Shown: positions 6,105 through 33,624 of the stretch, one piece after another
Layout: every line of letters begins with the position of its first letter
Numbering within the stretch: the first letter of the stretch is position 1
NCBI GenBank assembly: GCA_046760145.1
Contig: JBHIDO010000002.1
Location: forward strand, 1 to 58,086
DNA: 58,086 nt
Direction of reading: 5' to 3'
DNA from: Candidatus Aenigmatarchaeota archaeon
GTDB lineage: Archaea > Aenigmatarchaeota > Aenigmatarchaeia > Aenigmatarchaeales > Aenigmatarchaeaceae
The notes under the pieces: generated by a model
The model's database searches: none
Told to the model about the DNA's origin: nothing
What the model saw: only the letters and a program-made list of their open reading frames with translations
Position numbers and translations under genes: made by a program

Positions 6105-6148
6105 TCCTTTCTTTAATTCTAAATTGGGCCCATAGCTCAGTCTGGTAG

Positions 6149-6822
6149 AAAGGAGGAACAAAAATGATTAATAAAGATGTAGCAGAATTGGTTGGCGTAC
6201 ATCTGGGAGATGGACGTATGTCCCATTATTTTGCTAGATCTGAGGATATCTTTAGATTTGAAATTTTGTTCACAGGAGATTGGGACAAAGACTCTAGATA
6301 TTATAAAGAAGTTTTACAACCCATAGTAATTAGAAACTTTGGAATTAAAGGTCATATAAAACATAGAAGAGACGATGATACAGTTAGATACGTGATTAAA
6401 AGCAAGAAACTTGCAACGTTTTTTGTACGACTTGAAATACCTGTTGGGAAAAAAGCAGAGATATGTAAAATACCCTCTGAAGTAATTTGTGACATAGATT
6501 TATCTATCGCTTGTATTAGAGGTATTTTCAATAGTGACGGCAGTATTTATAGAAGATATAATAAACGTTATAAAAATACGCCTGAAGACTATTACAAATA
6601 TGCAGTTGTACAGTTCAAAATGAAAAGCAAAGATTTGATTAAGCAAATAAAAGACGTTTTGAATAGCCTCCATATTAGAACAACTAAAATAAGCAGAAAC
6701 TGTAATAGTTGGGTATTAAGAATAACGCATCAGAAATCTATTGACATCTTTTTTGATTTATTTAAAATAAACCACAATTATCACTTGAAAAGGTATAATG
6801 ATATTCGTTCCTCTTTGCCAAA
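6149..6822 (+). mobile_element. ORF-bearing bulge-helix-bulge (BHB) intron of tRNA-Lys(CUU)
   Basis: A 10-bp intron helix pairs AAGGAGGAAC (6150-6159) with GTTCCTCTTT (6807-6816). A 4-bp central helix pairs TGGT (6143-6146) with GCCA (6817-6820). It is flanked by 3-nt bulges AG|A (6147-6149) and AA|A (6821-6823). The exon-side outer helix is weak. Confidence 0.8.
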
Positions 6823-6838
6823 AGCAACTGGCTCTTAA
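6164..6838 (+). CDS. Double-motif LAGLIDADG homing endonuclease-like protein (intron-encoded)
   Basis: Motif 1 is LVGVHLGDGRM and motif 2 is CIRGIFNSDGSIY. A GGAGG SD lies 8 nt upstream of the ATG. The last 5 codons and the TAA lie in the 3' exon; the TAA is anticodon-loop positions 36-38. Confidence 0.85.
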   Translation: MINKDVAELVGVHLGDGRMSHYFARSEDIFRFEILFTGDWDKDSRYYKEVLQPIVIRNFGIKGHIKHRRDDDTVRYVIKSKKLATFFVRLEIPVGKKAEICKIPSEVICDIDLSIACIRGIFNSDGSIYRRYNKRYKNTPEDYYKYAVVQFKMKSKDLIKQIKDVLNSLHIRTTKISRNCNSWVLRITHQKSIDIFFDLFKINHNYHLKRYNDIRSSLPKATGS

Positions 6839-6909
6839 CCAGTAGGTCGCGGGTTCGAATCCCGTTGGGCCCACCAATCTTTTTAAAGAACATTCAACAT
6901 AATTTAGTT

Positions 6910-7161
6910 ATGATGACAAGAACAGCTTCATATAGTTTATCTTTAATATTATTACTAATAGGAATAATCATAATAATCTGGAATCCCTTTGATGTAATAA
7001 TTATTTCAATTGGAATGTTTTTGATAGCAGTTGCAATAATAAATTCAGCTATAATGATTAACTTCCCTAAGAAAAGACGAAAACCTGTTGAATTAAAGAT
7101 AGTAAAGACAAAGCCTTCTACGAAAAAGCTTAAAAAAGCGGTTAGAAAAAAGAGGAAATAA
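6910..7161 (+). CDS. Small membrane protein with a lysine-rich tail
   Basis: Two hydrophobic helices followed by KKRRKPVELKIVKTKPSTKKLKKAVRKKRK. The start is moved to the ATG at 6910 because 6865-6876 is tRNA. Confidence 0.5.
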   Translation: MMTRTASYSLSLILLLIGIIIIIWNPFDVIIISIGMFLIAVAIINSAIMINFPKKRRKPVELKIVKTKPSTKKLKKAVRKKRK

Positions 7162-7276
7162 CTTCAGAGGAAAAATATACGTCAAACAGTAAACTTTATA
7201 AAGGATTAGATATAAACATAAAAAAGCCCTCTTTTGCATTTTAACTCAGTAGAGAGAGTAATCTATAGGTGGTTGA

Positions 7277-7516
7277 TTGGGAGAAATAAATGTTCTTAAA
7301 CATATCTTAGTTCCAAAGCATGTAATTCTTAAAGATGAGGAAAAGAAAAAATTACTTGAAAAATTAAAAGTAGTTCCTGAACAATTACCTAAGATATATA
7401 CAAAGGATCCAATCTCTAAAGCACTTGGAGCAAAAGAAGGTGACATAATTAAAATAATAAGAAAATCTCCAACAGCTGGTGTAACAACATATTATAGACT
7501 AGTTGTAAAAGGGTAA
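7277..7516 (+). CDS. rpoH: DNA-directed RNA polymerase subunit H (Rpo5)
   Basis: HILVPKHVILKDEEKKKLLEKLKV..LPKI...DPISKALGAKEGDIIKIIRKSPTAG; it sits directly upstream of rpoB. The start is a non-ATG (TTG) and is uncertain. Confidence 0.85.
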   Translation: MGEINVLKHILVPKHVILKDEEKKKLLEKLKVVPEQLPKIYTKDPISKALGAKEGDIIKIIRKSPTAGVTTYYRLVVKG

Positions 7517-7520
7517 TTTT

Positions 7521-10500
7521 ATGAGTTTATTAGAAGCATTTAAAAATGATGTTGGTTTTGTTAGATTTCAAATTGATAGTTTTAATGATTTTATTGATAA
7601 TAGATTACAAAAAATTATAGATGAAATTGAAGAGATAAAACCAGAGGTTCCTGAAATTGGAGAACTAGTAATAAAATTTGGAAAGGTTTCTGTTGGAAAG
7701 CCTTGTGTAAAAGAAGCAGAAGGAGCAATAAGAAATATTTTGCCTTTAGAAGCAAGATTAAGAGATTTATCATACACCGCTACAGTCTATGTAGAAGCTA
7801 CACCAATAGTTAACAAAGTTGAACAAGAACCTGTACAGGTTTTAATTGGCGAATTACCAATAATGATCAAATCTAAGATATGCCCTTTAAGTAAAATGTC
7901 AAGAGAAGAATTAGAAAGAGTTGGTGAAGATCCTGATGATCCAGGTGGATATTTCATAATAAATGGAACTGAACGTGTTCTGGTTCTAATAGAAGAAATT
8001 GCTCAAAACAGGATGATATTAAAAAAAATAAGTATTGGGAATTTTACAGAATTGATGAGGATAAATTCTGAACATAATGGTTATGTTCAAAGACATGTTA
8101 TTGAAAGGAAGAATGATGGTTCAATTTATATTTCCTTTGCAAATATTAGAAGATTACCAATTGTTGTTTTATTAAAATTACTAGGATTAGAAAAAGATAA
8201 AGATATAATTGAAAATTTAGGAGATGAACAAATAATAAATGAATTTTATGGAAATCTTTATGAAACTGATGTCCAAACTGCCAAAGAGGCATTAGATTTT
8301 ATTGGTAAACATCTGAAAATTGTTCAAAAAGAATATAGGAAAAAAAGAGTTGAACAAATAATTAATAAATATTTATTACCACATTTAGGACAATCACCTA
8401 AAAATCGAATAGACAAAGCAAATTATTTATTAAAAGCAATTAAAAAAATCATTCAATTATCATTAGATATAATTCCTGAAGATGATTTGGATCATTATGG
8501 TAACAAGAGAATAAAACTTGCTGGAGATTTATTGGAATTATTATTTAGGTCGATTCTTGTTGGAAGATGGGGATTGATTGCGAGAGTAAAATATAATTAT
8601 CAAAAAATGGCTAAAAGAGGAAAATTACCACCTATTCAAACAATTGTTGAGGCAAATGTTGTAACAAATCAACTAGCATCTGCAATGGCAACAGGAGCAT
8701 GGGTTGGAGGAAGAACAGGAGTTTCACAAAGACTAGAAAGAAAAAATTATGCTGATTCTCTTTCACATTTAAGATTAGTCTTATCACCATTAACTTCTAC
8801 TCAAGAGCATTTTGAAGCTAGAGAACTTCACTCAACACATTGGGGGAGGTTTTGTCCAGCAGAAACTCCAGAAGGTCCAACAATTGGATTGAGAAAACAT
8901 TTAGCATTATTTGCAGAAATAACAGATGGTATTTCAAAAACAGAAATGAAAAGATTAATTTCTAGTATTAAATTAGATAAAGAAGGTACAGACGTTTATT
9001 TAGATGGGGTACCAATTGGTTATACTTCTAATCCTGAAGATATTATTAAAACCCTTAAAGAAAAAAGAATGCAGGGAAAAATATCAAAAAAAATAAATTT
9101 TGTTTATTATCCTAAGTTAAATGAAATAAAAATTAATACAGATGCAGGAAGAGTTAGAAGACCTTTAGTTGTTATAGAAAATGGTAGACCGAAATTAACA
9201 GAAGAACACTTGAAAAAATTAAAAAACAAAGAAATTAGCTGGTATGATTTGGTAAATGAGGGTATTATAGAGTATTTAGATCCAGAAGAAGAAGACTCTG
9301 TATTAGTTGCATTAAATAAAGAAGATATAACATCATCTCATACTCATTTAGAATTAATGCCATTAGCTATTTTAGGGATTTCTGCTAGTTTGGTTGTATT
9401 TCCAGAACATAATAGAGGAGACAGAGTCAATTATGGAGCAAAAATGGTAGGGCAATCTATTGGAATGTATCAGAGTAACTTCTTTTTGAGAACAGATACA
9501 AAATCAAATATTTTGGTTTATCCACAAAAACCATTGGTTGTAACAGATACAATACCGGTTGTTGGTTTAAATCACCATCCAGCAGGACAAAATGTTGTAA
9601 TAGGGCTAATTAGTTATAAAGGATATAACATGGAAGATGCAGTTATTTTTAATAAGTCTTCAATAGAAAGAGGCTTATTTAGATCATTTTTCTATAGAAT
9701 ATATCCTGCTGAAGAAAAAAGATATTGGGGAGGTCAAGAGGATACAATTGGAATACCAAGTAAAGATGTTCGTGGTTATAGATCTGAAGAAGATTATGCA
9801 AACTTAGCAGAAGATGGCGTATTACCATTAGAAACTGCTGTTAAAAGTGATGATGTTTTAGTTGGAAGAATCTCTCCATTAAGATTTCTATCTGCGAATG
9901 AATTGATGTCAGGAATTGCAAACATGAGAGAAAGTTCTATTTTATTAAGACATGGAGAAACAGGGATCGTTGATAGGGTTTTCTTTACAGAAACAACTAA
10001 TGGTAACAAATTGATTAAAGTTGCAATAAGAGATTTAAGAATTCCAGAATTAGGAGATAAGTTTGCTTCAAGACATGGACAAAAATCTGTTATTGGTTTG
10101 ATTACAAATGAAGAAGATATGCCTTTCACGTCTCAAGGAATAATTCCAGATATTATTTTAAATCCACATTCTATTCCTTCAAGACAAACTATAGGACAGT
10201 TATTAGAAATGATAGCTGGAAAAACCGCAGCACTAAATGGAAAAGAAATTAATGCGTCTGGTTTTACCGGGTCAAATGAAAGTGAAATAAGAAAATTACT
10301 ACACGAATTAGGATTTAGAAGTGATGGAAAAGAAGTTATGTATAATGGAATAACAGGAGAAAAATTTGAAATAGAAATATTTATTGGGATGATGTATTAC
10401 CAGAAACTGGACCATATGGTTGCAAATAAATTGCAAGCAAGATCTAGAGGACCTGTCACATTATTAACCAGACAACCAACCGAAGGAAAAGCAAAAGAAG

Positions 10501-10775
10501 GTGGACTAAGATTAGGAGAAATGGAAAAAGACTGTTTAATTGCACATGGTGCAGTTTTAACATTAAAGGAAAGATTTGACTCTGATAAAGTTGTTGTTCC
10601 AATATGTAAGAAATGTGGTATGGTAGCTGTTTGGGATCGAACAAAGGATAAAAATGTTTGTCCTGTTTGTAAAGACTCTGATGTAATTAATACAGAAATG
10701 TCTTATGCTTTCAAATTATTATTAGATGAATTAAAATCAATGATGATTTATCCAAAGTTAAATGTAAGTGGTTAA
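7521..10775 (+). CDS. rpoB: DNA-directed RNA polymerase subunit B (unsplit Rpo2)
   Basis: 1084 aa; GDKFASRHGQKSV, PDIILNPHSIPSRQTIGQ, and the C-terminal zinc ribbon CKKCG...CPVC. Confidence 0.97.
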   Translation: MSLLEAFKNDVGFVRFQIDSFNDFIDNRLQKIIDEIEEIKPEVPEIGELVIKFGKVSVGKPCVKEAEGAIRNILPLEARLRDLSYTATVYVEATPIVNKVEQEPVQVLIGELPIMIKSKICPLSKMSREELERVGEDPDDPGGYFIINGTERVLVLIEEIAQNRMILKKISIGNFTELMRINSEHNGYVQRHVIERKNDGSIYISFANIRRLPIVVLLKLLGLEKDKDIIENLGDEQIINEFYGNLYETDVQTAKEALDFIGKHLKIVQKEYRKKRVEQIINKYLLPHLGQSPKNRIDKANYLLKAIKKIIQLSLDIIPEDDLDHYGNKRIKLAGDLLELLFRSILVGRWGLIARVKYNYQKMAKRGKLPPIQTIVEANVVTNQLASAMATGAWVGGRTGVSQRLERKNYADSLSHLRLVLSPLTSTQEHFEARELHSTHWGRFCPAETPEGPTIGLRKHLALFAEITDGISKTEMKRLISSIKLDKEGTDVYLDGVPIGYTSNPEDIIKTLKEKRMQGKISKKINFVYYPKLNEIKINTDAGRVRRPLVVIENGRPKLTEEHLKKLKNKEISWYDLVNEGIIEYLDPEEEDSVLVALNKEDITSSHTHLELMPLAILGISASLVVFPEHNRGDRVNYGAKMVGQSIGMYQSNFFLRTDTKSNILVYPQKPLVVTDTIPVVGLNHHPAGQNVVIGLISYKGYNMEDAVIFNKSSIERGLFRSFFYRIYPAEEKRYWGGQEDTIGIPSKDVRGYRSEEDYANLAEDGVLPLETAVKSDDVLVGRISPLRFLSANELMSGIANMRESSILLRHGETGIVDRVFFTETTNGNKLIKVAIRDLRIPELGDKFASRHGQKSVIGLITNEEDMPFTSQGIIPDIILNPHSIPSRQTIGQLLEMIAGKTAALNGKEINASGFTGSNESEIRKLLHELGFRSDGKEVMYNGITGEKFEIEIFIGMMYYQKLDHMVANKLQARSRGPVTLLTRQPTEGKAKEGGLRLGEMEKDCLIAHGAVLTLKERFDSDKVVVPICKKCGMVAVWDRTKDKNVCPVCKDSDVINTEMSYAFKLLLDELKSMMIYPKLNVSG

Positions 10776-10776
10776 G

Positions 10777-10946
10777 ATGATACCAAAAGATATCAAGAAA
10801 AATATTGAAAATATGGCAAGAACAGGAGAATTATTTCCCAATGAGATACAGATAGAACTTGGAAGTGGTAGAGTAGCTATCATGGAAAAAAGAGAAATAA
10901 GAAATTATGGAGATAGTGTTTTCATATACGAAAGGCGTGATAAATT

Positions 10947-10950
<4 letters not shown>
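10777..10950 (+). CDS. Hypothetical 57-aa protein wedged between rpoB and rpoA1
   Basis: The ATG is 2 nt after the rpoB stop (an in-frame GTG at 10768 overlaps rpoB). Its stop overlaps the rpoA1 ATG (ATGA). No recognised family. Confidence 0.45.
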
Positions 10951-14550
<3,600 letters not shown>

Positions 14551-14554
14551 TAAT

Positions 14555-14824
14555 GTGACATTAGAAGAATTAAAAGATGCATTAACCAAAAATAATGTTA
14601 TTATCGGTAGTAAGAGAACAATTAAATATTTAAAAACAAAGAATGTAAAATTAGTTATGATTGCTAGTAATTGTCCTGAAAATATTAAGAATGATATTAA
14701 TCATTACTCAAAAATTTCTAAAATAAAAGTAGAAAAATTTGATGGTACAGCAAAACAATTAGGAATATTTTGTGGTAAACCATTTCCAATAGCAACTCTA
14801 GCAATAAAGAGTGAAGTAAAATGA
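14555..14824 (+). CDS. rpl30e: 50S ribosomal protein L30e
   Basis: VIIGSKRTIKYLKTKNVKLVMIASNCP and the conserved position after rpoA2; GTG start. Confidence 0.85.
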   Translation: MTLEELKDALTKNNVIIGSKRTIKYLKTKNVKLVMIASNCPENIKNDINHYSKISKIKVEKFDGTAKQLGIFCGKPFPIATLAIKSEVK

Positions 14825-15219: not shown

Positions 15220-15220
15220 T

Positions 15221-19936: not shown

Positions 19937-19937
19937 A

Positions 19938-23640: not shown

Positions 23641-23644
23641 TTTA

Positions 23645-24690: not shown

Positions 24691-24721
24691 GATTTTTATT
24701 GATTAAATAAGAACTTAAAGT

Positions 24722-25201: not shown

Positions 25202-25205
25202 AAGA

Positions 25206-25406
25206 TCATCTCTGAGTTTCTATGAACCTCTCTATTGATCTGTCAAATGTTTTTTCTACATCTTTAGGAAAAAAACACGCTGGTAATTCTCCTCTTTTCC
25301 AATGAGACTTAATACATTCACAACATATACCCTTTTTTGAGCAAGGTTCGTATGTACATGGGCAGTTTTGCTTATTTATCTCAATGTTAGAACAAGGTTT
25401 TCTCAT
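25206..25406 (-). CDS. Small Cys-rich protein (8 Cys + His), unknown function
   Basis: [46 protein letters not shown]. The start is moved to the ATG at 25406, which overlaps the L39e stop (ATGA). Confidence 0.55.
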
Positions 25407-25564
25407 TTTTTCAACCTTCCTCTTCTCCAATTCTTTGTTCTATGAACTTGAATTCTTCTTGTTCTTGCACGTTTTCCATATCTTTTAAGATCAGCCCATC
25501 TAGGAGCTCTCTTCTTTTTTGAAGCCTTTATTAATCTTAACTTTTTAGGTAATTTTTTAGGCAT
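25403..25564 (-). CDS. rpl39e: 50S ribosomal protein L39e (53 aa; missing from the ORF track)
   Basis: Manual translation gives [53 protein letters not shown]. It has the conserved position upstream of L31e. Confidence 0.85.
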
Positions 25565-25568
25565 CTAA

Positions 25569-25823
25569 TCACTTTCTTTTTATTTTTGTTTTTCTCTTTT
25601 TAGGAATTAAAAGGTTTAATATCTGTTTTAATTTTTTATCATCAATTACCTTTTTTAATTGACCTGATTGATGAAGTTGAATCAAATACATTTCCAATTG
25701 TGAAGCAATTATAGGATTTACCATTTTAATTCTTCCTAATCTTTCGTAAGCTTTTTTTGATAAAATTTTTCCTAAAATTTTCTTTTTTTCATTTTCTAAT
25801 TCTATCATGTCTGGTTCTGTCAT
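25569..25823 (-). CDS. PDCD5-like dsDNA-binding protein
   Basis: ILSKKAYERLGRIKMVNP..A.QLE.YLIQL.QSGQL; conserved neighbour of S19e. Confidence 0.75.
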   Translation of the reverse strand: MTEPDMIELENEKKKILGKILSKKAYERLGRIKMVNPIIASQLEMYLIQLHQSGQLKKVIDDKKLKQILNLLIPKKRKTKIKRK

Positions 25824-26236
25824 TTAATCAACTTATCAACAAATCTTTGACCTTGAGGTGTTATTTTTCTTCCCTTTCTTGGTTTTTCAACCTTTTCGAT
25901 ATATCCTGCTGCTTCTAATTGTTGCAATATTAATCTTATTATTTTTCCACCAGCTTTTCTATGATGAGCAGGTTTATGACCCCTTCTCTTTCTTGATCCA
26001 AATGCTGTTCTAAGTCTTTGAACACCTATTGGACCTTTTAAGTAAATTTTTCTTAAAATTGCTGCTGACCTCATATACCACCAGTCTTTTTGAATAGGAG
26101 GTTTTTCTGCATTTACTCCTGTTTTCACAAATCTAGACCAATCTGGAGGTTTTATATTTTCATTTTTCTTTAATTCTTCTGATAATTTCTTTATTAATTC
26201 TGATGGTGGGATATCTCGCATTTTATCACATAACAC
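25820..26236 (-). CDS. rps19e: 30S ribosomal protein S19e
   Basis: PDWSRFVKTGVNAEKPPIQKDWWYMRSAAILRKIYL...GGKIIR.ILQQLE.AGY. Confidence 0.92.
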   Translation of the reverse strand: MLCDKMRDIPPSELIKKLSEELKKNENIKPPDWSRFVKTGVNAEKPPIQKDWWYMRSAAILRKIYLKGPIGVQRLRTAFGSRKRRGHKPAHHRKAGGKIIRLILQQLEAAGYIEKVEKPRKGRKITPQGQRFVDKLIK

Positions 26237-26244
26237 TTTGTTAT

Positions 26245-26406
26245 TTAAATATTTAATCTATACTTCTTTACTATTTTATTTATTAATTCTTTATATCTTT
26301 TAGAATACTTAGGGTATTTCTTAATCATTTTCTTTAAAATTTCTATTCTTTCCTTTGCTATTTTGATTTGTTGATTTCTAATTTGTAGCCTTTTTTTGTA
26401 TTTCAT
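26245..26406 (-). CDS. RNase P protein component Rpp21-like, N-terminal helical domain only (53 aa, no zinc ribbon)
   Basis: IAKERIEIL....YPKYSKRYKELINKIVKKYRLNI resembles the two N-terminal helices of archaeal Rpp21. The ORF stops before the CxxC ribbon would begin. The start is trimmed to 26406 because 26416-26448 is tRNA. Confidence 0.5.
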   Translation of the reverse strand: MKYKKRLQIRNQQIKIAKERIEILKKMIKKYPKYSKRYKELINKIVKKYRLNI

Positions 26407-26453
26407 AAAAACACTTGGTGCGGCCGCTGGGATTTGAACCCAGGTCATCAGCT

Positions 26454-26467
26454 TTCTTCATAGTCTA
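26454..26467 (-). other. tRNA-Gly intron 2 (14 nt, canonical 37/38)
   Basis: TAGACTATGAAGAA. The central helix pairs CTTC (positions 32-35) with GAAG, and the bulges are CA|T and AA|A. Confidence 0.8.
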
Positions 26468-26475
26468 TGGAAGGC

Positions 26476-26492
26476 TTACCCACATAAATGTT
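26476..26492 (-). other. tRNA-Gly intron 1 (17 nt, position 29/30)
   Basis: AACATTTATGTGGGTAA. The central helix pairs ACCT with GGGT, the bulges are CA|A and AA|G, and 3-bp helices lie on both sides. Confidence 0.8.
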
Positions 26493-26508
26493 TGAGGTCC
26501 TAACCAGA

Positions 26509-27360
26509 CTAGACTACGGCCGCATTATCAAATAATTTCAATAGTTTCTCTATTTCTTGATTATTGAACATTGCTAGTGCCCAAGAGTTCATAGTTCTAT
26601 CTGGATATATTTTAGCTTTGATATTTGCCTTATTTAAGATATCAAGAACGTCCTTTAAAAGTATTTTAGTACTCTGTTTTATTGCTAGTGTTCTTCTACC
26701 ATCTTTACGCATACTTAATGAACCATCAGAATCGTAAAGACCACGTATAAAATTTATCTGAAGTAATAGTGGAGCATCTTTTATAATTTTCGGAACTCGT
26801 ATATTATTCTTTTTCTTTCCTTCTGGTAAATCAAATACATACATCAAAAATTGTTTAATAGGAATTGAGGTAAAGGATAGAACAGAATAATTCCTGTAGT
26901 TTATAATTTTAGATTCAACATTGAAGGTATTATCAACTATAGTTTTTATTACTCTTAAATCTTTACTTGATATTGTAATAGTAGCTCTTTCAGTTGTAAT
27001 TCCACCATCACCAATAATAACACCTATTAAGTAAGCTAATTTATTATTTAATCTTCTTGGTAATTGTATTATTTTACCATTTCTAGAAGAAAATCCACTC
27101 ATTATTTTGTATGCTTCATCAATATATTTTGTATTTGATAGTCTTTTACATAAATAAATAAAATTTCTAATTGAAATTGGAGTAGATTTCTTCCATTTGT
27201 AAATAAGTGATTTATGTACACTAAGTTCTTTAGATAAATCTGAAATAGAAATTTTTAACTTTAACATTTCTAAGATTTCAGAAACTAGAGATGTTATCCC
27301 ATGAATGTAAATATTTTGATTTGTTTTTCCTAGTTTTATTAAATAATTTCTTATTTCCAT
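26509..27360 (-). CDS. LAGLIDADG homing endonuclease-like protein with an N-terminal HTH extension
   Basis: HTH-like ISISDLSKELSVHKSLIYKWKK; motif 1 LIGVIIGDGGI; motif 2 FIRGLYDSDGSL. The last 5 codons and the TAG (GCG GCC GTA GTC TAG) are positions 1-15 of tRNA-Gly. Confidence 0.85.
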   Translation of the reverse strand: MEIRNYLIKLGKTNQNIYIHGITSLVSEILEMLKLKISISDLSKELSVHKSLIYKWKKSTPISIRNFIYLCKRLSNTKYIDEAYKIMSGFSSRNGKIIQLPRRLNNKLAYLIGVIIGDGGITTERATITISSKDLRVIKTIVDNTFNVESKIINYRNYSVLSFTSIPIKQFLMYVFDLPEGKKKNNIRVPKIIKDAPLLLQINFIRGLYDSDGSLSMRKDGRRTLAIKQSTKILLKDVLDILNKANIKAKIYPDRTMNSWALAMFNNQEIEKLLKLFDNAAVV

Positions 27361-27406
27361 AATAATTCACCTAGACTGGTGCATAAGATAATTAAACTAG
27401 AATTAT

Positions 27407-27802
27407 TTAAAAAGACTCTCTTATTTTTCTAGCAATATTTTTCATTTCTTCATCAGATAATTTTTTAACATTCTCTACATTAATTGATCCTCCATGTCCA
27501 TCATTCGAAAATCTAGGAACTAACCAAATATGTGCATGTTCTACTTCTTCTCCAAATATCATCGAAACAACCCATTCTGTATTAAAAGCTTTCCTAATTG
27601 CATTTGCAATTTTACTTACAACTTCGAAATATTCTCCAACATTTGGTACATCCCAAACCCATCTATAATGCTTTTTTGGAATAACCATTGTGTGTCCTGG
27701 ATTTAATGGTCTTATATCTAGAAATGCTAAAAAATTATCACTCTCATAAACTTTATAACTAGGTATTTCTCCCTTTACAATTTTACAAAATATACAATTC
27801 AT
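27407..27802 (-). CDS. HIT family (histidine triad) nucleotide hydrolase
   Basis: CIFCKIV N-terminus, FLDIRPLNPGHTMVIPKKH, and the HAHIWLVPR histidine triad. The start is trimmed to 27802 because the upstream part of the ORF is tRNA-Trp. Confidence 0.9.
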   Translation of the reverse strand: MNCIFCKIVKGEIPSYKVYESDNFLAFLDIRPLNPGHTMVIPKKHYRWVWDVPNVGEYFEVVSKIANAIRKAFNTEWVVSMIFGEEVEHAHIWLVPRFSNDGHGGSINVENVKKLSDEEMKNIARKIRESF

Positions 27803-27851
27803 GTTATCACCAATGGTGGGGTCGCCCGGATTCGAACCGGGATCAGCTGGT

Positions 27852-27918
27852 ATCACCATGGCACCAGAGCCACATACCAACTTTTTTATCATCTTTTCAT
27901 CAAAGCTCCAGCAAAATT
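27852..27918 (-). other. tRNA-Trp intron 2 (67 nt, 37/38)
   Basis: A near-canonical BHB. CTCC (32-35) pairs with GGTG with one T-T mismatch, and the bulges are AG|A and AT|A. It contains a perfect TGATGA. Confidence 0.6.
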
Positions 27919-27953
27919 CTGGAGCCAGCCATCTTAACCTGGTTGGACCACGA

Positions 27954-27971
27954 TTCTGGTTTTAAAAAAAT
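27954..27971 (-). other. tRNA-Trp intron 1 (18 nt, position 4/5 in the acceptor stem)
   Basis: ATTTTTTTAAAACCAGAA. The central helix pairs CTGG with CCAG, and the bulges are GG|A and AA|T. The inner helix pairs TTTT with AAAA. A 7-bp outer helix pairs leader GACCATG (27978-27984) with CGTGGTC (27946-27952). Confidence 0.8.
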
Positions 27972-27989
27972 CCCCAGCATGGTCGCCCT

Positions 27990-28727
27990 TCAACGACCCC
28001 ATTTTATTAATTTATTCCTTTTATTTATATTATTAAAACCTATTTGTTCTTTATATGATTCCAAACTCTTTGTCTTTATGTCAAAAACTAAACCTTTGGT
28101 TTTATAACCGTCTTTTCTTAGATTACCATTGATTATCCAGGTTTTTGTAGTTTCTATGTTAAATCTTTTAAGCATATCCTTCATATCTTTCATAAATAAT
28201 TTTCCATTTTCTAATTTTTCTTCAATCTTATGTAATTTAAATCTTATTTTCATTCTATTTGGTTCTTTCCAAATACTACCCTCACAATCAAATGCGATTT
28301 TTAAATATAATCTAGCAAATTCTAGATTATTTTTTATCCATGTTGGAACTAAAAATGTTTGTTTTACTTTACTTCCTGTTGGAGTATCCAAAAGTTTTAG
28401 AATTCTAGAAATTGGAGCAGAAATTATTCTATATTCGTAACATGTCCCAAAATTACTTTTTATTTTTCTATATTTTCCAATTAAATTAAATTCTTTTTTA
28501 ACCAATCTTTCAATTTCTTTCAACTCAGATAATAGAGAGCTAGTAAATAGAAATGCCTTTTCAGATAAGTATAGATGCCCATTAAAAGTTAAAAATGAAA
28601 TAATCTTTACTAGATCCTCATTTCCATAAATAGGAAAATTAATTTTATATTTTTCCATTGATTTTAATGCAAATTTCTTAAGTTTATATGAATTAAGAAA
28701 TTGTGTTTTAGTTAATATTGGCTTCAT
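27990..28727 (-). CDS. LAGLIDADG homing endonuclease-like protein (first motif degenerate)
   Basis: Motif 1 is ISFLTFNGHLY, with Asn where the catalytic Asp is expected. Motif 2 is YLKIAFDCEGSIW. It shares the PTGSK...VP linker with the other three. Its stop region GGGGTCGTTGA copies the first 8 nt of mature tRNA-Trp. Confidence 0.75.
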   Translation of the reverse strand: MKPILTKTQFLNSYKLKKFALKSMEKYKINFPIYGNEDLVKIISFLTFNGHLYLSEKAFLFTSSLLSELKEIERLVKKEFNLIGKYRKIKSNFGTCYEYRIISAPISRILKLLDTPTGSKVKQTFLVPTWIKNNLEFARLYLKIAFDCEGSIWKEPNRMKIRFKLHKIEEKLENGKLFMKDMKDMLKRFNIETTKTWIINGNLRKDGYKTKGLVFDIKTKSLESYKEQIGFNNINKRNKLIKWGR

Positions 28728-28747
28728 AATTAAAAATTATGTTATCA

Positions 28748-28755
28748 AATATAAA
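28748..28755 (-). promoter_or_regulatory. TATA-like box upstream of the LAGLIDADG/tRNA-Trp gene string
   Basis: TTTATATT on the minus strand, 21-28 nt upstream of the ATG at 28727. Confidence 0.35.
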
Positions 28756-29041
28756 TAGTTGGTAGATGACCCCTTGTTTAGAATAGAATATTTGTTAGTG
28801 AAGAAATAAAAATATCTATAATGGGACATTATTCTGATAAGGGAAGTGTACCATAGTCTCAAATGGAGAAGAAGAATTTATAAAGGGAGTAAAAATTGAA
28901 AATGAAAACGATGTTAAAGACGCCGCATATGCATTAAAAATGGTGATAGAAAAAGCATTAGAAACAAAACAATATATAGAAGTTCATTAAATAATTTTAC
29001 TTAGATTCTTAGAATACATTTTCTAAATATTAATTTTATAA

Positions 29042-29114
29042 AGCCTCGGGAGGGTCTCGAACCCCCGACCTGCGGTTTACAAGACCGCCGCTCTTCCAAC
29101 TGAGCTACCGAGGC
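29042..29114 (-). tRNA. tRNA-Thr(UGU), no intron, no encoded CCA
   Basis: GCCTCGG TA GCTC AGTTGGAA GAGC G GCGGT CTTGTAA ACCGC AGGTC GGGGG TTCGAGA CCCTC CCGAGGC T. Confidence 0.95.
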
Positions 29115-29153
29115 ATAATCAAATTTTATATTAACATTTTTTAAATATATCTT

Positions 29154-29498
29154 ATGCTTGGAGAAGTGATTTTAGCAATAATTGCTGCTGTTATTGGTGG
29201 CTTATCTTTATCTATTCAGAAACTCGGTCTAGACAAAGTTAAAAAAATAAGACCAAAAGATTTGATTAAATCTAAGACATGGATAGCTGGAATTTTACTT
29301 GCCTTAACAGGATTTACTATTTATATATATGCATTAAGTGTAGGGAAGATTGCAATAATACAACCTTTAATGGAAACAGCAATGGTTTTCTCAATTATTT
29401 TCAATTATTTATTATTTAGAGAAAAATTGAGTCGGTTCGAAGGTTTTTGTTTTATTTTGGTATTTATAGGAATAATACTAATTGCGTTTGGTGGTTGA
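29154..29498 (+). CDS. 4-TM DMT-superfamily (EamA/SMR-like) half transporter
   Basis: 114 aa, four hydrophobic helices; paired with the adjacent similar gene. Confidence 0.55.
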   Translation: MLGEVILAIIAAVIGGLSLSIQKLGLDKVKKIRPKDLIKSKTWIAGILLALTGFTIYIYALSVGKIAIIQPLMETAMVFSIIFNYLLFREKLSRFEGFCFILVFIGIILIAFGG

Positions 29499-29834
29499 AT
29501 GAATTATAAAGTATACGCAATAATAACTGGAATATTTTTTGGAACAGGTGCTTTATTGATAAAAGTTTTTCTAAATGATTCTTATTGGTTTATTTTGTTA
29601 TTAGCACTAATTCTTGGTTTAACTGGTTATGGATTTCTGCAATTTGCATTGAAAAAAGGTAGAGGAAACATTACATTAGTTTTAGCATTAGGAATTTCAA
29701 GTGTTATTGCAATTTTGGGAGGAATATTCCTATTATCAGAAATTTTATCACTCCTAGAAATAACTGGAGTTATTCTTATCTTATTAGGACTTATTTTGTT
29801 AAAGTTTAAGAAGAGATTTATAAATATTTTCTAA
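29499..29834 (+). CDS. 4-TM DMT-superfamily (EamA/SMR-like) half transporter, second subunit
   Basis: 111 aa, four hydrophobic helices; it starts at the base after the previous stop. Confidence 0.55.
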   Translation: MNYKVYAIITGIFFGTGALLIKVFLNDSYWFILLLALILGLTGYGFLQFALKKGRGNITLVLALGISSVIAILGGIFLLSEILSLLEITGVILILLGLILLKFKKRFINIF

Positions 29835-30920
29835 ATCTTTAGAACAATTTTGAATTGAATATTTCTTTACCGTTTCTAATCCATTCTTTATTAATTTATT
29901 TCTTAATTTTTTATTATTTAATATTTTCAAAATATGTTTATGAATTTCATTATCATTATTAAATAAAATTCCGTTGTAATTGTTTATTACAAAATCCTTA
30001 AAACCTAAAGCATTTTTAACAATAACCGGGCATTTGGATGCAAATGCTTCTAAAGCAACAACACCTTGAGTTTCCGTTTTAGAAGCACAAGCAAAAACAT
30101 CAGAAGTTTTATAATATTTTATTAAACTTTTTGGTTGAACCTTTTTATGAGAAATATAACCTGTAAATTCAACATTTTTTAATTTCATTTTTTTAACCAA
30201 ATTCTCTAATTCTTTTCTATATGGTCCATCAGAAGTTATTATTAATTTGGCATCAATTTTTTTGAGAAGTTTTTTAAATTCTCTTAAAATAACATCAATC
30301 CTTTTTTCTTTTGTTATTCTACCAACATGTAAAATTACTGGAACTTTATTTTTCTTTTTAACTTTAATGTTAAACTCTTCTAATTTCAAACCTGTTGGTA
30401 GAACTTTTATTGGTTTTCTAATTCCATAACTTTTTAATAATTTTTTTATTGGATTGCTAGGAACAGTTATTATATCGGCTCTATTAAAGAACCATTTTGT
30501 ATACTTTCTTATTGCTCTTTTATTTATCTTTTTTAAGAACTTTCTTTTTGTCAAATAATGAACATAATCTGTAAGAAATGTATGATATGTCATTACAATT
30601 GGTATTTTCAAAAATTTTGCTATTGACAAACCGATCAAACCAATAGAGGCAGGAGATTGTAAATGAATTATATCTGGTCTTATTTTTCTAATTATCCTTA
30701 AAACTTTTAGAGATGGTAATCCAATTCTATATTCAGGATAAGGTCTGAAACTAAAGGATCGTAAAGCATATACATTTTTTTCTTTTCTTAACTTCTTATC
30801 ATAAGGACAGACAATATATACTTTATGCCTTTTTCTCAATTGTTCTGAAAATAACTTTATAGAAGTAACAACACCATTTACTTGAGGGGTATAGGTATCT
30901 GTAAAGAATACAATTTTCAT
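29799..30920 (-). CDS. Glycosyltransferase family 4 (GT-B fold)
   Basis: N-terminal KIVFFTDTYTPQVNGV and C-terminal ASKTETQGVVALEAFASKCPVIV (E-x7-E-like). Confidence 0.85.
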   Translation of the reverse strand: MKIVFFTDTYTPQVNGVVTSIKLFSEQLRKRHKVYIVCPYDKKLRKEKNVYALRSFSFRPYPEYRIGLPSLKVLRIIRKIRPDIIHLQSPASIGLIGLSIAKFLKIPIVMTYHTFLTDYVHYLTKRKFLKKINKRAIRKYTKWFFNRADIITVPSNPIKKLLKSYGIRKPIKVLPTGLKLEEFNIKVKKKNKVPVILHVGRITKEKRIDVILREFKKLLKKIDAKLIITSDGPYRKELENLVKKMKLKNVEFTGYISHKKVQPKSLIKYYKTSDVFACASKTETQGVVALEAFASKCPVIVKNALGFKDFVINNYNGILFNNDNEIHKHILKILNNKKLRNKLIKNGLETVKKYSIQNCSKDLENIYKSLLKL

Positions 30921-30927
30921 TATCTCA

Positions 30928-31629
30928 CTAGTTATAATCTTCTCTAATATACTTTATATCTTTTAATTTCTTTCCTAACAATAATCTCATATCTCCTTTG
31001 AACCATGTCCATAATGTTTTTAAATAACCATGCTTTTCCATTCTTCTTGTTGAAACTTTAACATTTAACCTCTTGTCATAAGTTATTTTTCCTAATTTTC
31101 TGAATCTAAAACTCAAATCTGCATCGTCAGAATGCGGTAAAATTCTATAACCTCCTATTTTTTGAAAAACATCTTTTTTAAAAGCAGAATTTGTTCCACC
31201 TAAACAATAATACTTGAATAAACTAGATATTCTTATTAAATATCTTAAAAAGAAAAAGGTTATTTTTGATTTTCTAGTTTTTTCTATTGGCTCATCAGGA
31301 CCACAAACAGCAATTGAACCATTATTTAGGTGATATAAAATGTTTTCTAACCAATCTTTTGGAACGATAACATCTGCATCTGTTGTTGCAACAAAATCAT
31401 ACTTTGCAATTCTTATTCCATCATTTCTTGCACCGGCAACACCTTTGCTTTTCTGAATAATAACCTTATCTGCATATTTTTTTGCAATTTCCCTTGTTCT
31501 ATCATTAGAATTTCCATCCACAACTATTACTTCATAAGAATTTCTAGGAATTGTTTGATTTGTTAATTTTTTCAATGTTCTTTCTATAAATTTTTCTTCA
31601 TTATAGGTTGGTATTATCACTGATATCAT
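30928..31629 (-). CDS. Glycosyltransferase family 2
   Basis: ISVIIPTYNEE, VVDGNSNDRT, TDADV (DxD). Confidence 0.85.
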   Translation of the reverse strand: MISVIIPTYNEEKFIERTLKKLTNQTIPRNSYEVIVVDGNSNDRTREIAKKYADKVIIQKSKGVAGARNDGIRIAKYDFVATTDADVIVPKDWLENILYHLNNGSIAVCGPDEPIEKTRKSKITFFFLRYLIRISSLFKYYCLGGTNSAFKKDVFQKIGGYRILPHSDDADLSFRFRKLGKITYDKRLNVKVSTRRMEKHGYLKTLWTWFKGDMRLLLGKKLKDIKYIREDYN

Positions 31630-31669
31630 TTTATCACCTGGTGCCTGGGGTGGGATTTGAACCCACGAC

Positions 31670-31697
31670 TTCTAGCCTCTTTTTTGTATTTAGAGGT
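31670..31697 (-). other. tRNA(CAU) intron 3 (28 nt, 45/46 in the variable loop)
   Basis: The central helix pairs CTAG with CTAG, the bulges are AG|A and AA|G, and the intron helix pairs CCTCT with AGAGG. Removal creates the variable loop AGGTC. Confidence 0.75.
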
Positions 31698-31705
31698 CTC
31701 TAGAT

Positions 31706-31759
31706 CTCTCAGCTGACTAAGTTTTCAGTCATGCCTTAAGGTCATAACTCATAACAACT
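31706..31759 (-). other. tRNA(CAU) intron 2 (54 nt, canonical 37/38)
   Basis: The central helix pairs CTCA (32-35) with TGAG, and the bulges are TA|A and AG|A. It is flanked by the 5-bp anticodon stem CTAGA/TCTAG and the intron helix GTTG/CAGC. Confidence 0.8.
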
Positions 31760-31766
31760 TATGAGT

Positions 31767-31779
31767 TTCGCCAATTTTT
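31767..31779 (-). other. tRNA(CAU) intron 1 (13 nt, 30/31)
   Basis: AAAAATTGGCGAA. The central helix pairs CGCT with GGCG, the bulges are AG|A and AA|A, and the exon helix pairs GAG with CTC. Confidence 0.8.
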
Positions 31780-31787
31780 CTAGCGCT

Positions 31788-32411
31788 CTAACCAGCTGAG
31801 CCACCCAGGCTCATTTTTTCATTCAACCAATTTTTATATTTTGTTTGATGTTTAGGATTTATAAATCCTACCTCTTTATAAAATATTTTGGTATTTCTAT
31901 ATCCATTAAATTGTAGACGTGTGAATTTTGGATATAAACCGCCTTTCATACCAATACTTTCTAATTTTTGTTTTATTTGTTCTAATAATGGAATAGAAAT
32001 ACTTCTAAATTCTATTCTTGGATACATTATACCATTATTATTAGTAATAACTAGAGAACCATCAGTTGCAAAAATTCCGGATATAATATCTTTCTCTAAA
32101 TTATGATCGAAGAATATTTTAGGAATAGATATATTTTTCTTTTTACCAACAGGAAAGCCCAAAGATTTTATGTACTCAAAAAGTTCTTTATCAGAGAAAT
32201 TTATTTCTATTTTCCCATGTTTGGACCTTTTCTTATATACAACTTTCTTTTTTCTAATCTTAGCCAAAATTGGGATAACTATCTTGTCAAAGAAAGGTTG
32301 GTCATTATAATAATTACAGGTTATAACTATGGCTCTTGCTCTAGAATATCTAGAGAGACAACCATCACCAATTAGTATTCCATAAAGATTTGCTAAATCT
32401 TTGTTAATCAT
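31788..32411 (-). CDS. Double-motif LAGLIDADG homing endonuclease-like protein
   Basis: Motif 1 is LYGILIGDGCL and motif 2 is IISGIFATDGSL. Its N-terminus MINKDLANL parallels the intron-encoded paralog. Its last 7 codons and the TAG are positions 1-23 of the tRNA(CAU). Its start overlaps the DUF362 stop. Confidence 0.85.
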   Translation of the reverse strand: MINKDLANLYGILIGDGCLSRYSRARAIVITCNYYNDQPFFDKIVIPILAKIRKKKVVYKKRSKHGKIEINFSDKELFEYIKSLGFPVGKKKNISIPKIFFDHNLEKDIISGIFATDGSLVITNNNGIMYPRIEFRSISIPLLEQIKQKLESIGMKGGLYPKFTRLQFNGYRNTKIFYKEVGFINPKHQTKYKNWLNEKMSLGGSAG

Positions 32412-33213
32412 ATCTATTTACTCCGACTTTAATTTTTTTAACTAATGTTGGTTTATTACCTATTTTCATTTGTATTGCTTTATCTATATAAAAAACTTTA
32501 TCATAACCCAAAATCTTTGCACCAACACAATCTACAGCTACAGGATCTTCTCCAACTATTGTGATATCAAATTCTTTTAATTTCCCATATAAATGAGAAC
32601 CATACATACCTGTTGTACCATCTATAACTCCTAAATTAGGTTTAATCTTTTTTAAAATATCACACATTCTTTGTGTCCAAATTTCATAAGAATCTTCTTT
32701 ATGCATAAAGGATTTATTAGGGTAACTTCCTTTTGGTTTTAAAATACCCATCATATTTTTTAATGTAAGAGTTACTTCAAATGCATGTTCTTTTAGAGGT
32801 ACTGCTGATATCAAATAATCTGTTTTCAAAATGAATTTTGTTACCTCAATATTTTTCCATAATTCTCCATTTAGTTTTATGGTTACAAATTCAAAATCAT
32901 CAAAGTTTATCAATTCAACATTATAATTTTCAGTTAAGTAACGATATCCAGCTTTTTCAAAACATTTATCAGTATAATAACCAGCCGAGCTCTCTCCTAT
33001 TAATATTTTATACTTATTATCATCTAAGAATTTTATTATTCCTTCTAATAATTCTGGTCTCGTGACTGCTCCAGAATCTTTTTTCATTGGTTCAACCAAA
33101 TTTGGTTTTATTAATATTTTAGAATTAACCTTGGGTAAACTCGGTGAAAGTTCTTTCAATGCGTTTTCAGTTCTTTTTATTATATCCTTTCCTTCACATA
33201 TTACAACTTTCAT
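32404..33213 (-). CDS. DUF362-like protein
   Basis: KILIKPNLVEPMKKDSGAVTRPELLEGIIKFL and GESSAGYYTDKCFEKAGY. Assignment is from motif memory. Confidence 0.55.
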   Translation of the reverse strand: MKVVICEGKDIIKRTENALKELSPSLPKVNSKILIKPNLVEPMKKDSGAVTRPELLEGIIKFLDDNKYKILIGESSAGYYTDKCFEKAGYRYLTENYNVELINFDDFEFVTIKLNGELWKNIEVTKFILKTDYLISAVPLKEHAFEVTLTLKNMMGILKPKGSYPNKSFMHKEDSYEIWTQRMCDILKKIKPNLGVIDGTTGMYGSHLYGKLKEFDITIVGEDPVAVDCVGAKILGYDKVFYIDKAIQMKIGNKPTLVKKIKVGVNRYD

Positions 33214-33222
33214 CTAATCACA

Positions 33223-33376
33223 TGGTGGGCCCGACGGGATTCGAACCCGCGACTCCCGGGTTTAAAGACCGAGACTAACAGTCTGCAGGTTTTCTTCCTG
33301 TCATTGCTAAAAGCTCAACATGCTTTTATCCTGACGGATAAAAGCCCGGTACTCTACCAGACTGAGTTACGGGCCC
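33223..33376 (-). tRNA. tRNA-Lys (probably UUU) with a 77-nt insertion in the anticodon loop; splice junctions unresolved; CCA encoded
   Basis: GGGCCCG TA ACTC AGTCTGGTA GAGT A CCGGG CTTTTA [77 nt] A CCCGG GAGTC GCGGG TTCGAAT CCCGT CGGGCCC A CCA. All four arms pair perfectly. Confidence 0.7.
33262..33338 (-). other. Intervening sequence of tRNA-Lys(UUU), drawn at 37/38; no BHB found by eye
   Basis: It begins with a perfect 10-bp hairpin GCTTTTATCC-GTCA-GGATAAAAGC (33322-33345) that buries the anticodon loop. It ends in ...CTCGGTCTTTAA. Confidence 0.5.
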
Positions 33377-33624
33377 CTTGTAATTCTTTTTAATTTATCA
33401 AATTTATCTTTTGTTAAATCTATCCATAATCCAAAACTTCCATTAATATCCGATATTTCTAACATTTTCTTTCTCTTATCTTTATGAAGTTCTATTACTA
33501 CTTCTCTACTTCTTAGTTCTAAAGATAATTCCTTTCCTGCTAAATTTCTTGGTTGATCTAACCGAATATCTTTCCATTCGATTAATCTTTGTGCAACACC
33601 CTTGTCTAATTTCAATATTATCAT
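33367..33624 (-). CDS. 85-aa hypothetical protein, possible decayed single-motif LAGLIDADG remnant
   Basis: MLEISDINGSFGLWI resembles a LAGLIDADG motif with Asn replacing the second acidic residue. The start is trimmed to 33624 (upstream is tRNA-Asp). The TAA stop is positions 8-10 of tRNA-Lys(UUU). Confidence 0.4.
   Translation of the reverse strand: MIILKLDKGVAQRLIEWKDIRLDQPRNLAGKELSLELRSREVVIELHKDKRKKMLEISDINGSFGLWIDLTKDKFDKLKRITRGP

Follow-up and report, generated by a model that had tools for sequence, protein, structure and literature searches.

The window analysed here, a 58,086-nucleotide (nt) stretch covering positions 1 to 58,086 (forward strand) of contig JBHIDO010000002.1 from a Candidatus Aenigmatarchaeota archaeon (GenBank assembly GCA_046760145.1), carries four LAGLIDADG genes, designated A to D, each of which touches one of the nine tRNA genes present. 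These genes probably belong to a large family, diversified in DPANN-type archaea, that encodes monomeric LAGLIDADG homing endonucleases and has the tRNA gene as its genomic niche, with DNA cleavage and homing as the presumed activities. The window has a G+C content of about 29%, contains an archaeal 5S rRNA and is tightly packed, with neighbouring genes either overlapping or separated by spacers of 10-13 nt. Its proteins have their nearest relatives in metagenome-assembled genomes of Nanoarchaeota, Aenigmatarchaeota, Woesearchaeota and Pacearchaeota, which makes a DPANN-type archaeon the most likely source.

Identity and fold of the four LAGLIDADG genes

6164-6838, plus strand: LAGLIDADG gene A, 224 amino acids (aa), inside an intron of tRNA-Lys(CUU); Pfam LAGLIDADG_3 E value 2.9e-10
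26509-27360, minus strand: LAGLIDADG gene B, 283 aa; Pfam LAGLIDADG_3 E value 6e-16; N-terminal helix-turn-helix (HTH)-like extension (weak HTH matches)
27990-28727, minus strand: LAGLIDADG gene C, 245 aa; Pfam LAGLIDADG_3 E value 3e-6
31788-32411, minus strand: LAGLIDADG gene D, 207 aa; Pfam match; start overlaps the end of the upstream DUF362 gene

All four proteins score above the Pfam gathering cut-off for LAGLIDADG_3 (PF14528), in agreement with the initial annotation of this DNA, which had described four double-motif LAGLIDADG open reading frames (ORFs) at these positions, each tied to a same-strand tRNA gene. It had also counted an 85-aa ORF as a fifth, decayed member, and the profile search that it proposed for all five returns the four genes only. 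The relationship that it claimed among the four is borne out: they are distant paralogues with 21-30% identity, most pairs reaching blastp E values of 1e-16 to 1e-6, although genes C and D match each other at only 0.17. They share a P-x-G-(K/S)-K linker and a second motif of the form (F/Y)xx(D/E)GS, and two of them open with MINKD..GDG. Genes A, B and D combine GDG with (S/T)DGS, that is, two LAGLIDADG helices each ending in a catalytic acid. Both acidic residues are invariant in the gene D family (D16 and D117 in 34 aligned sequences) and in the Lys-, Ile-, Val- and Ala-linked relatives of gene A. The hallmark of domestication, loss of the catalytic acids with retention of the fold, is therefore absent: the residues are also present in gene B and in the homologues of gene C, and only the window copy of gene C has lost one.

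An AlphaFold2 model, made for gene D alone, adopts the double LAGLIDADG fold (tandem alpha-beta-beta-alpha-beta-beta-alpha) with a mean predicted local distance difference test score (pLDDT) of 95.5. The archaeal enzyme I-Tsp061I (2dch) is its top Foldseek match (template modelling (TM) score 0.71, E value 1e-9), with I-DmoI also retrieved, and profile comparison likewise gives I-Tsp061I (E value 2e-7) followed by I-DmoI. The modelled fold stops precisely where the tRNA begins; the seven residues that the tRNA encodes form a tail predicted with low confidence. Homologues of gene D number 254, and the D family is conserved at 40-65% identity across Nanoarchaeota, Aenigmatarchaeota, Woesearchaeota and Pacearchaeota. 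By profile, motifs and the fold of gene D, genes A to D are members of a monomeric double-motif LAGLIDADG family.

Linkage to tRNA genes across related loci

Related loci were collected in two sets, 80 from species-representative genomes with a profile of gene D homologues and 80 from metagenomes with a profile of gene A relatives, and their tRNAs were annotated with a purpose-built tRNA covariance model. The 154 loci with a complete ORF were counted, and a tRNA was considered linked if it overlapped the ORF or lay at most 60 nt away, as is the case in 116 of the 154. The tRNA lies at the 3' end of the ORF in 116 of 119 linked cases; in 61 of these the ORF enters the 5' end of the tRNA on the same strand, and at 55 of the 119 it lies on the opposite strand and converges on the tRNA 3' end. 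Because about half of the ORFs run opposite to their tRNA, the link must operate at the level of DNA, as a target site, and not through co-transcription; the original suggestion that tRNA transcription is the general basis of the association is thereby set aside. Overlap lengths on the same strand fall into clusters of 10-11, 15-16 and 22-23 nt, as explained by conserved UAG/UAA triplets at tRNA nt 8-10, 13-16 and 20-23.

The proposal of a tRNA-specific family is upheld by the way in which clades track tRNA identity. Gene D relatives occur at tRNA(CAU) in about 40 loci, those of gene B at tRNA-Gly(UCC) and those of gene C at tRNA-Trp, and further clades are linked to Ile(UAU), Val(UAC), Ala, Gln(UUG), Leu and Thr tRNAs. 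The nearest endonuclease relative is attached to the same type of tRNA in 75 of 84 comparisons, compared with a mean of 18 and a maximum of 32 when labels are shuffled.

In 15 of the 59 loci with ORF and tRNA on one strand, the region upstream of the ORF contains a duplicate of the tRNA 5' segment, comprising its first 15-23 nt (p<=0.01 against shuffled sequences). The duplicate lies about 35-60 nt before the start codon and is preceded, at the usual distance, by a box resembling a B recognition element (BRE) and TATA element; some antisense loci show the equivalent feature, an extra copy of the tRNA 3' segment. The Gln(UUG) clade shows the duplication most plainly (in 9 of its 16 loci, with an exact 15-mer in L142), and there the copy stands at a constant 33 nt from the ATG in eight of the nine loci in which it was located. 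The simplest reading that this arrangement suggests is of a cassette sitting inside the tRNA gene, which would have brought a replacement terminal segment and left the old promoter and 5' segment upstream. The boundary of the Gln-clade cassette, where the upstream copy ends at nt 21-22, coincides with short D-loop introns in some Gln tRNAs and with the intron site of gene A in the window.

In the Gln clade (L150, L165, L103, L131 and other loci), the upstream copy and the functional tRNA often differ in their D-stem allele (GUAC..GUAU versus GUCU..GGAU), and the alleles are swapped reciprocally between loci. Such swapping hints at allele-based immunity, in which a resistant tRNA allele would be co-converted together with the endonuclease gene.

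Gene A and the intron of tRNA-Lys(CUU)

6126-6148, plus strand: tRNA-Lys(CUU) exon 1, nt 1-23 (acceptor 5' strand, D-stem 5' strand and D-loop)
6149-6822, plus strand: bulge-helix-bulge (BHB) intron of 674 nt in the D-loop of tRNA-Lys(CUU); boundary ambiguous by 1 nt
6823-6876, plus strand: tRNA-Lys(CUU) exon 2 with encoded CCA; partial Rfam match at 6817-6865, covariance-model (CM R1) match at 6807-6873

The tRNA genes of the window were identified with Rfam and with ARAGORN allowing introns, and they lie where the initial annotation had placed them. Those containing introns were parsed by hand, and the spliced products were called again with ARAGORN, which returned the expected tRNA each time (Gly-UCC, Met/CAU, Trp-CCA, Lys-CUU, Lys-UUU and Tyr-GUA).

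Gene A is located within the D-arm of tRNA-Lys(CUU), as first described, between nt 1-23 and the remainder of the tRNA. The predicted 3-4-3 BHB consists of a central helix (U6143-U6146 with G6817-A6820) flanked by 3-nt bulges (A6147-A6149 and A6821-A6823), and is of a relaxed form with an outer helix of only about 1 base pair. It is continued by a 10-base-pair intron stem (6150-6159 with 6807-6816) that holds a GGAGG Shine-Dalgarno sequence, and the complementarity of the intron ends exceeds that of shuffled sequences (z=-3.5). The predicted BHB cuts would yield an exact mature tRNA, and 6126-6148 joined in silico to 6823-6873 is recognised by ARAGORN as tRNA-Lys(ctt). Gene A ends at a UAA stop codon that the anticodon loop in exon 2 supplies, and a TATA-like box (TTTTTATAAA) lies about 25-30 nt upstream of exon 1. 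This seems to be the first tRNA BHB intron found to encode a homing endonuclease.

Relatives of gene A with 37-47% identity are associated with tRNA-Lys(CUU) in all nine loci examined, in three geometries. At L090, L093 and L094, the A-family gene lies outside the tRNA, which contains an ORF-less intron of 17-28 nt at the intron site of the window; these short introns share the 3' end of the window intron (UUGCCAAAA before GC). The three loci have the arrangement of collaborative homing, that is, a free-standing endonuclease gene beside a gene with an ORF-less intron. With gene A of the window added, they make up the succession of states that collaborative-homing and endonuclease-invasion models predict, here with BHB introns.

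Genes B and C at tRNA-Gly and tRNA-Trp

26419-26523, minus strand: tRNA-Gly(UCC); introns 26476-26492 (position 29/30) and 26454-26467 (position 37/38); encoded CCA 26416-26418
27371-27382, minus strand: candidate degenerate tRNA-Gly 5' remnant (GCACC--AGTCTAG), 10 nt before the gene B start codon
27817-28000, minus strand: tRNA-Trp(CCA); exons 27994-28000, 27918-27950 and 27817-27850; encoded CCA after
27951-27993 (position 7/8, 43 nt) and 27851-27917 (canonical position), minus strand: tRNA-Trp introns, from hand parsing and ARAGORN
28758-28773, minus strand: upstream copy of the spliced tRNA-Trp 5' segment (GGGGTCATCTACCAAC); 12 of 16 nt match, p=0.0095

The final 15 nt of gene B are nt 1-15 of tRNA-Gly(UCC), with the stop codon UAG at tRNA nt 13-15, an overlap that had been noted from the outset together with those of 23 nt at tRNA(CAU) and 10 nt at tRNA-Lys(UUU). 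The gene B homologues P0122 and P0123 overlap tRNA-Gly(UCC) in the same way in the syntenic loci L081 and L084.

For gene C, the earlier description of an ORF ending 14 nt before tRNA-Trp and carrying a copy of the first 8 nt of that tRNA requires revision, as the supposed copy is probably the real 5' exon and the ORF ends 11 nt inside the tRNA, its UGA stop falling in the 7/8 intron. In L084 and L169, the acceptor strand of tRNA-Trp runs uninterrupted at the corresponding place, and a homologous intron of 30-40 nt comes next, at 7/8. By this homology the tRNA most likely starts at 28000 (GGGGUCG), and the starts at 27975 (initial annotation) and 27957 (ARAGORN) were dropped in its favour. The copy GGGGTCATCTACCAAC lies about 30 nt before the gene C start codon, and L169 has an equivalent upstream tRNA-Trp copy (14 of 17 nt match, p=0.002). 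The first motif of gene C reads FLTFNGHL, with N in place of the catalytic D, and the corresponding residues are DGH in 13 of 13 homologues; the change looks like early decay.

Four loci with common flanks (a methyltransferase, a HIT or adenosine-kinase-like gene, and S19e) allow occupancy to be compared at the two tRNA sites. The window carries both gene C and gene B, L081 and L084 carry gene B without gene C, and L169 carries gene C without gene B. The tRNA-Trp and tRNA-Gly sites are thus found in occupied and empty states among syntenic loci, a pattern taken as a sign of mobility, and the comparison of ORF-plus and ORF-minus alleles that had been called for supports the proposal. The same two introns are present in tRNA-Gly with gene B (L081) and without it (L169). 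Endonuclease copies that are apparently truncated or interrupted occur in L064 and L075.

Two further loci, L171 (2300-3400) and L172, contain a gene C homologue followed by only a 3' tRNA fragment, namely a T-arm with an insert in the T-loop and the acceptor strand CAGCCCC; at 45 nt upstream of the ATG stands GGGGCTA, and the D-arm and anticodon arm were not found there. The fragment could be a broken, split or heavily disrupted tRNA-Trp. In the window, a HIT-family hydrolase gene (27407-27802, minus strand) lies between tRNA-Trp and gene B.

Gene D and tRNA(CAU)

31642-31810, minus strand: tRNA(CAU); introns 31766-31778, 31705-31758 and 31672-31699; encoded CCA after

Residues 201-207 of gene D are encoded by nt 1-23 of tRNA(CAU), and its stop codon is the UAG in the D-loop. 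The closest same-strand genomic relative of gene D, at L006 (50% identity), is attached to tRNA-Ile(GAU) instead of a CAU tRNA, and the two tRNAs are nearly identical over nt 5-30 (window 31759-31810 compared with L006:3604-3707). This shared stretch points to the D-arm region as the part that would be recognised.

About 46 of 168 fetched loci, in the Met-, Ala- and Trp/Gly-linked clades, have a HIT homologue no more than 3 kb from the endonuclease gene, and HIT is the commonest shared flank gene of the D family (30 of 48 loci), which may reflect function or mere old synteny. Other recurrent D-family flank genes (e.g., L018:5227-5766), named from sequence alone, are an EndA-like tRNA-splicing endonuclease, Alba and glycyl-tRNA synthetase.

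Introns and their relation to the endonuclease genes

Hand parsing gives ten introns in the window, nine of which lie in the five ORF-linked tRNAs, as previously counted, and all non-canonical introns of the window are in these tRNAs. The broader statement of the initial annotation, that unusual introns occur exactly where an ORF is attached, holds within the window and, across 169 tRNAs of the related loci (119 beside endonuclease ORFs and 50 others), survives for D-loop inserts only. Long pre-tRNAs are not enriched beside the ORFs (45/119 versus 13/50, p=0.16) and inserts in the anticodon arm are equally common in both groups (41/119 versus 17/50), whereas D-loop inserts are about ten times commoner beside the genes (20/119 versus 1/50, p=0.009). 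Introns near the presumed target region would therefore be the ones that associate with the elements, which fits a scenario of introns interrupting the target site. The enrichment of D-loop inserts and the coincidence of cassette boundaries with D-loop introns in the Gln clade lend indirect support to a putative match between endonuclease target and intron site.

Use of the BHB splicing machinery, postulated for all of the ORFs, finds support at gene A only. Upstream of genes B, C and D, no pairing with the tRNA 5' end beyond that of shuffled sequences was detected (z=+0.3, -0.1 and +0.75, respectively), and excision of these genes from a long leader as BHB introns was rejected on that account.

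Proposed mechanism and alternative explanations

In the reading favoured here, each clade would recognise the gene of one tRNA species and cut alleles lacking the element, most likely in or near the D-arm, and repair of the break from an element-carrying allele would copy the cassette in. The insertion could be made harmless in three ways. A BHB intron at D-loop position 21/22 may hold the cassette in its loop, so that splicing removes it, as proposed for gene A. The cassette may instead lie within the tRNA gene and carry at its 3' end a replacement for tRNA nt 1-15 or 1-22, so that an intact tRNA would be regenerated downstream and the ORF would borrow its stop codon from the tRNA; the displaced promoter and old 5' segment would stay upstream and might drive the endonuclease gene. 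Gene C would fit this mode, gene B possibly, and the Gln, Val and Ala clades clearly. Lastly, the cassette may lie flush against the tRNA end with no spacer, as suggested for gene D and the many loci converging on a tRNA 3' end. Self-cleavage would probably be avoided through the linked tRNA allele, by D-stem covariation or by a BHB intron interrupting the site. Gene A could be an end stage, reached when a free-standing gene next to the tRNA entered an ORF-less intron that was already present. The cleavage site, homing and the mechanism of immunity are features that we infer from sequence patterns.

A bolder extension, which may hold but which we consider somewhat less likely than its opposite, is that insertion into the tRNA D-arm with a replacement 5' end and takeover of the promoter constitutes a third way for homing endonucleases to reside in an essential gene, besides introns and inteins, and that the resulting conflict drives non-canonical BHB introns and D-stem switching. 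If true, D-arm insertion would explain the origin of odd tRNA introns and of "missing" DPANN tRNAs.

Several observations weigh against the homing interpretation. The fetched loci share phylogeny, so that the Fisher and shuffle p-values are indicative only and overstate significance. The upstream remnant of tRNA-Gly at gene B is weak against shuffles (p=0.07 in the window and 0.13 in L081) and suggestive only. Exact-protein look-ups of flanking genes revealed no empty alleles within the species of the window, as all contigs carry the genes. Viral carriage is not indicated, since no D-family relative was found on IMG/VR contigs and a profile of gene A and its relatives gave only four weak matches there (23-25% identity). 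A regenerated tRNA would regenerate the target too, and immunity then needs an extra assumption. The D family also resides in a widely conserved neighbourhood (HIT, GlyRS, Alba and EndA; 680 of 1128 locus pairs share a flank gene), which long vertical persistence or domestication could explain as well as homing does. Homing preserves position, so that this neighbourhood is compatible with homing as well. In a comparison bearing on vertical versus horizontal inheritance, the identities of endonucleases and neighbouring HIT proteins are weakly correlated (rho 0.15), with both proteins near saturation.

It is mainly this shared neighbourhood that sustains the idea of vertically inherited, domesticated LAGLIDADG host genes, acting as maturase-like splicing helpers or as WhiA-like regulators of tRNA transcription, which we regard as unlikely but worth retaining. 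The persistence of the D family at 40-65% identity over four archaeal groups would suit a host function, as would the HTH-like N-terminal domain of gene B and of clades of about 300 aa, additional Foldseek matches to the bI3 maturase and I-AniI, and the loss of one catalytic Asp from gene C of the window. Maturases and WhiA usually lose the catalytic acidic residues, however, and in the families studied here Asp/Glu are invariant at these positions. Nor would an ordinary host gene be expected to show flanking duplicated tRNA segments, which resemble insertion scars. The genes are reciprocally present and absent among syntenic loci, many of the partner tRNAs lack introns, and the antisense orientation of about half of the loci rules out co-transcription. 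The latter point also tells against the literal form of the initial annotation, in which all five ORFs are expressed from tRNA transcripts and processed as BHB introns and the non-canonical introns are made by the endonucleases. The well-formed intron around gene A, the confinement of the window's non-canonical introns to ORF-linked tRNAs and the enrichment of D-loop inserts beside the genes speak for it. It is nonetheless improbable as a general account, because genes B, C and D lack end pairing, the fifth ORF is not a LAGLIDADG gene, anticodon-arm introns are as common away from the genes, and tRNA-Gly keeps both introns with or without gene B.

The association could also be thought to arise from dense packing, with ORFs in a compact AT-rich genome running on to the first stop codon, which would happen to lie inside a GC-rich tRNA. 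The overlaps and 10-13 nt spacers of the window are in keeping with this idea, and conserved UAG/UAA triplets in tRNAs account for the lengths of overlap. Chance of this kind does not explain why all LAGLIDADG genes of the window, four in number, adjoin or enter a tRNA gene when only nine such genes exist in 58 kb, why 116 of 154 related loci are alike, or why clades are specific to tRNA species, and its probability as the source of the association is close to nil. Dense packing is likely to be the reason for the exact overlap lengths.

The 85-aa ORF at tRNA-Lys(UUU)

33367-33624, minus strand: 85-aa ORF between tRNA-Asp and tRNA-Lys(UUU), ending 10 nt inside the latter; member of its own conserved small-protein family
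33226-33376, minus strand: tRNA-Lys(UUU); one 77-nt intron at the canonical position, 33262-33338; encoded CCA after

The ORF that reads into tRNA-Lys(UUU) had been regarded as a LAGLIDADG relic, an assignment that is withdrawn: Pfam, blastp and family hidden Markov models applied to all six frames detect no similarity. It belongs instead to a family of its own, with members of about 85 aa, for which 14 matches were found among 1.8 billion representatives (eight below 1e-10). Residues E56, D59 and F64 are invariant, and many members end in Gly-Pro, the translation of a GGGCCC tRNA 5' end. They constitute a second gene family, unrelated to the LAGLIDADG one, whose ORFs extend into tRNA 5' ends. 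The predicted fold (beta-alpha-beta4-alpha, pLDDT 73) has no significant match in the PDB; its best structural match, an Rpp21-like RNase P chain (E value 0.04, TM score 0.33), was taken as noise. A significant end duplex at this ORF was likewise rejected, the similarity between tRNA-Asp and tRNA-Lys being that of GC-rich acceptor stems only.

Expression and detection of the window tRNAs

TATA-like boxes are located 22-33 nt upstream of all window tRNAs except tRNA-Gly, where the box is ambiguous, and they are present even where the 3' end of an ORF occupies the region upstream of the tRNA. To judge from these boxes, the tRNAs probably keep their own promoters. The 3' CCA is encoded in exactly the five ORF-linked tRNAs (6874-6876, 26416-26418, 27814-27816, 31639-31641 and 33223-33225) and in none of the other four (Leu, Thr, Asp and Tyr). 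The check for a downstream gene covered the four CCA-encoding tRNAs other than tRNA-Lys(CUU), and all four are followed after 10-13 nt by the ATG of the next gene, with a GGTGA-like Shine-Dalgarno sequence in three. The spacing looks as if tRNA and mRNA might form one transcript.

Standard tools handle these genes poorly. At its gathering threshold the Rfam tRNA model misses tRNA-Trp entirely and reports tRNA-Lys(CUU) only partially, so that such genes would be scored as missing in genome surveys; ARAGORN misplaces the 5' end of tRNA-Trp and mislabels the multi-intron tRNAs. According to a 2026 preprint, which gives no explanation, tRNA-Trp was missing from 30 of 123 Woesearchaeales and tRNA-Val from 15 of 54 Pacearchaeales (10.64898/2026.05.13.725050). 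The arrangements described here offer a practical explanation for tRNAs that standard tools miss.

Comparison with known systems

Homing endonucleases are established in archaeal rRNA introns and in inteins, and free-standing forms with intronless homing, as well as collaborative homing, are also known. The full-text literature searched, the coverage of which is incomplete, yielded no account of LAGLIDADG genes that lie in tRNA introns of archaea or adjoin archaeal tRNA genes. Apparently, tRNA genes are a major, overlooked niche of homing endonucleases in archaea, and the family is undescribed. Its clades offer a ready panel of putative meganucleases with distinct natural specificities, and its association with introns suggests a cause of non-canonical tRNA introns that can be put to the test.

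The archaeal rRNA-intron enzymes I-Tsp061I and I-DmoI, the best structural and profile matches, have the same monomeric double-motif fold and, like gene A, are encoded in a BHB intron of a stable RNA gene. The host gene here is a tRNA and not 16S or 23S rRNA, however, and most members of the family lie outside introns.

Some homing-endonuclease insertions in organelles, e.g., in Allomyces atp6 and Ophiostoma rps3, duplicate the displaced end of the host gene, and integrative elements that target tRNA genes use integrases and carry a copy of the tRNA 3' end. Both resemble the cassettes proposed here in providing a replacement terminal segment that leaves the host gene intact, with a remnant on the other side. 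The present cases differ from the organellar insertions in having a tRNA as host gene, in duplicating the 15-23 nt at its 5' end and in apparently re-using the displaced promoter for the endonuclease gene; they differ from integrative elements in the absence of an integrase mechanism and in the duplication of the 5' instead of the 3' end.

The seg and mob genes of T4-like phages are similar in that the endonuclease gene lies beside its target gene and not in an intron. Free-standing endonucleases spread by break repair with co-conversion of flanking markers (PMC3984707), and SegB of the T4 tRNA gene cluster has reportedly been linked to phage tRNA genes (PMC13096335). Unlike the archaeal genes, seg and mob encode GIY-YIG or HNH enzymes and are phage-borne, whereas the present family is of the LAGLIDADG type, is found in cellular archaeal genomes, has one clade per tRNA species and has its ORFs joined physically to the end of the tRNA.

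Collaborative (trans) homing and the invasion of introns by endonuclease genes have reportedly been documented for F-CphI and psbA, by Zeng, Bonocora and Shub in 2009 and by Loizos et al. Endonuclease-gene invasion and collaborative homing have been put forward as a route by which mobile introns are born (PMC3984707). Gene A, its free-standing relatives and the ORF-less intron version offer a natural series for the way in which mobile introns originate, in which L090, L093 and L094 would represent the intermediate and gene A of the window the end state. In contrast to the known cases, the introns are protein-spliced BHB introns and not self-splicing group I introns, and the coincidence of target site and intron site is putative.

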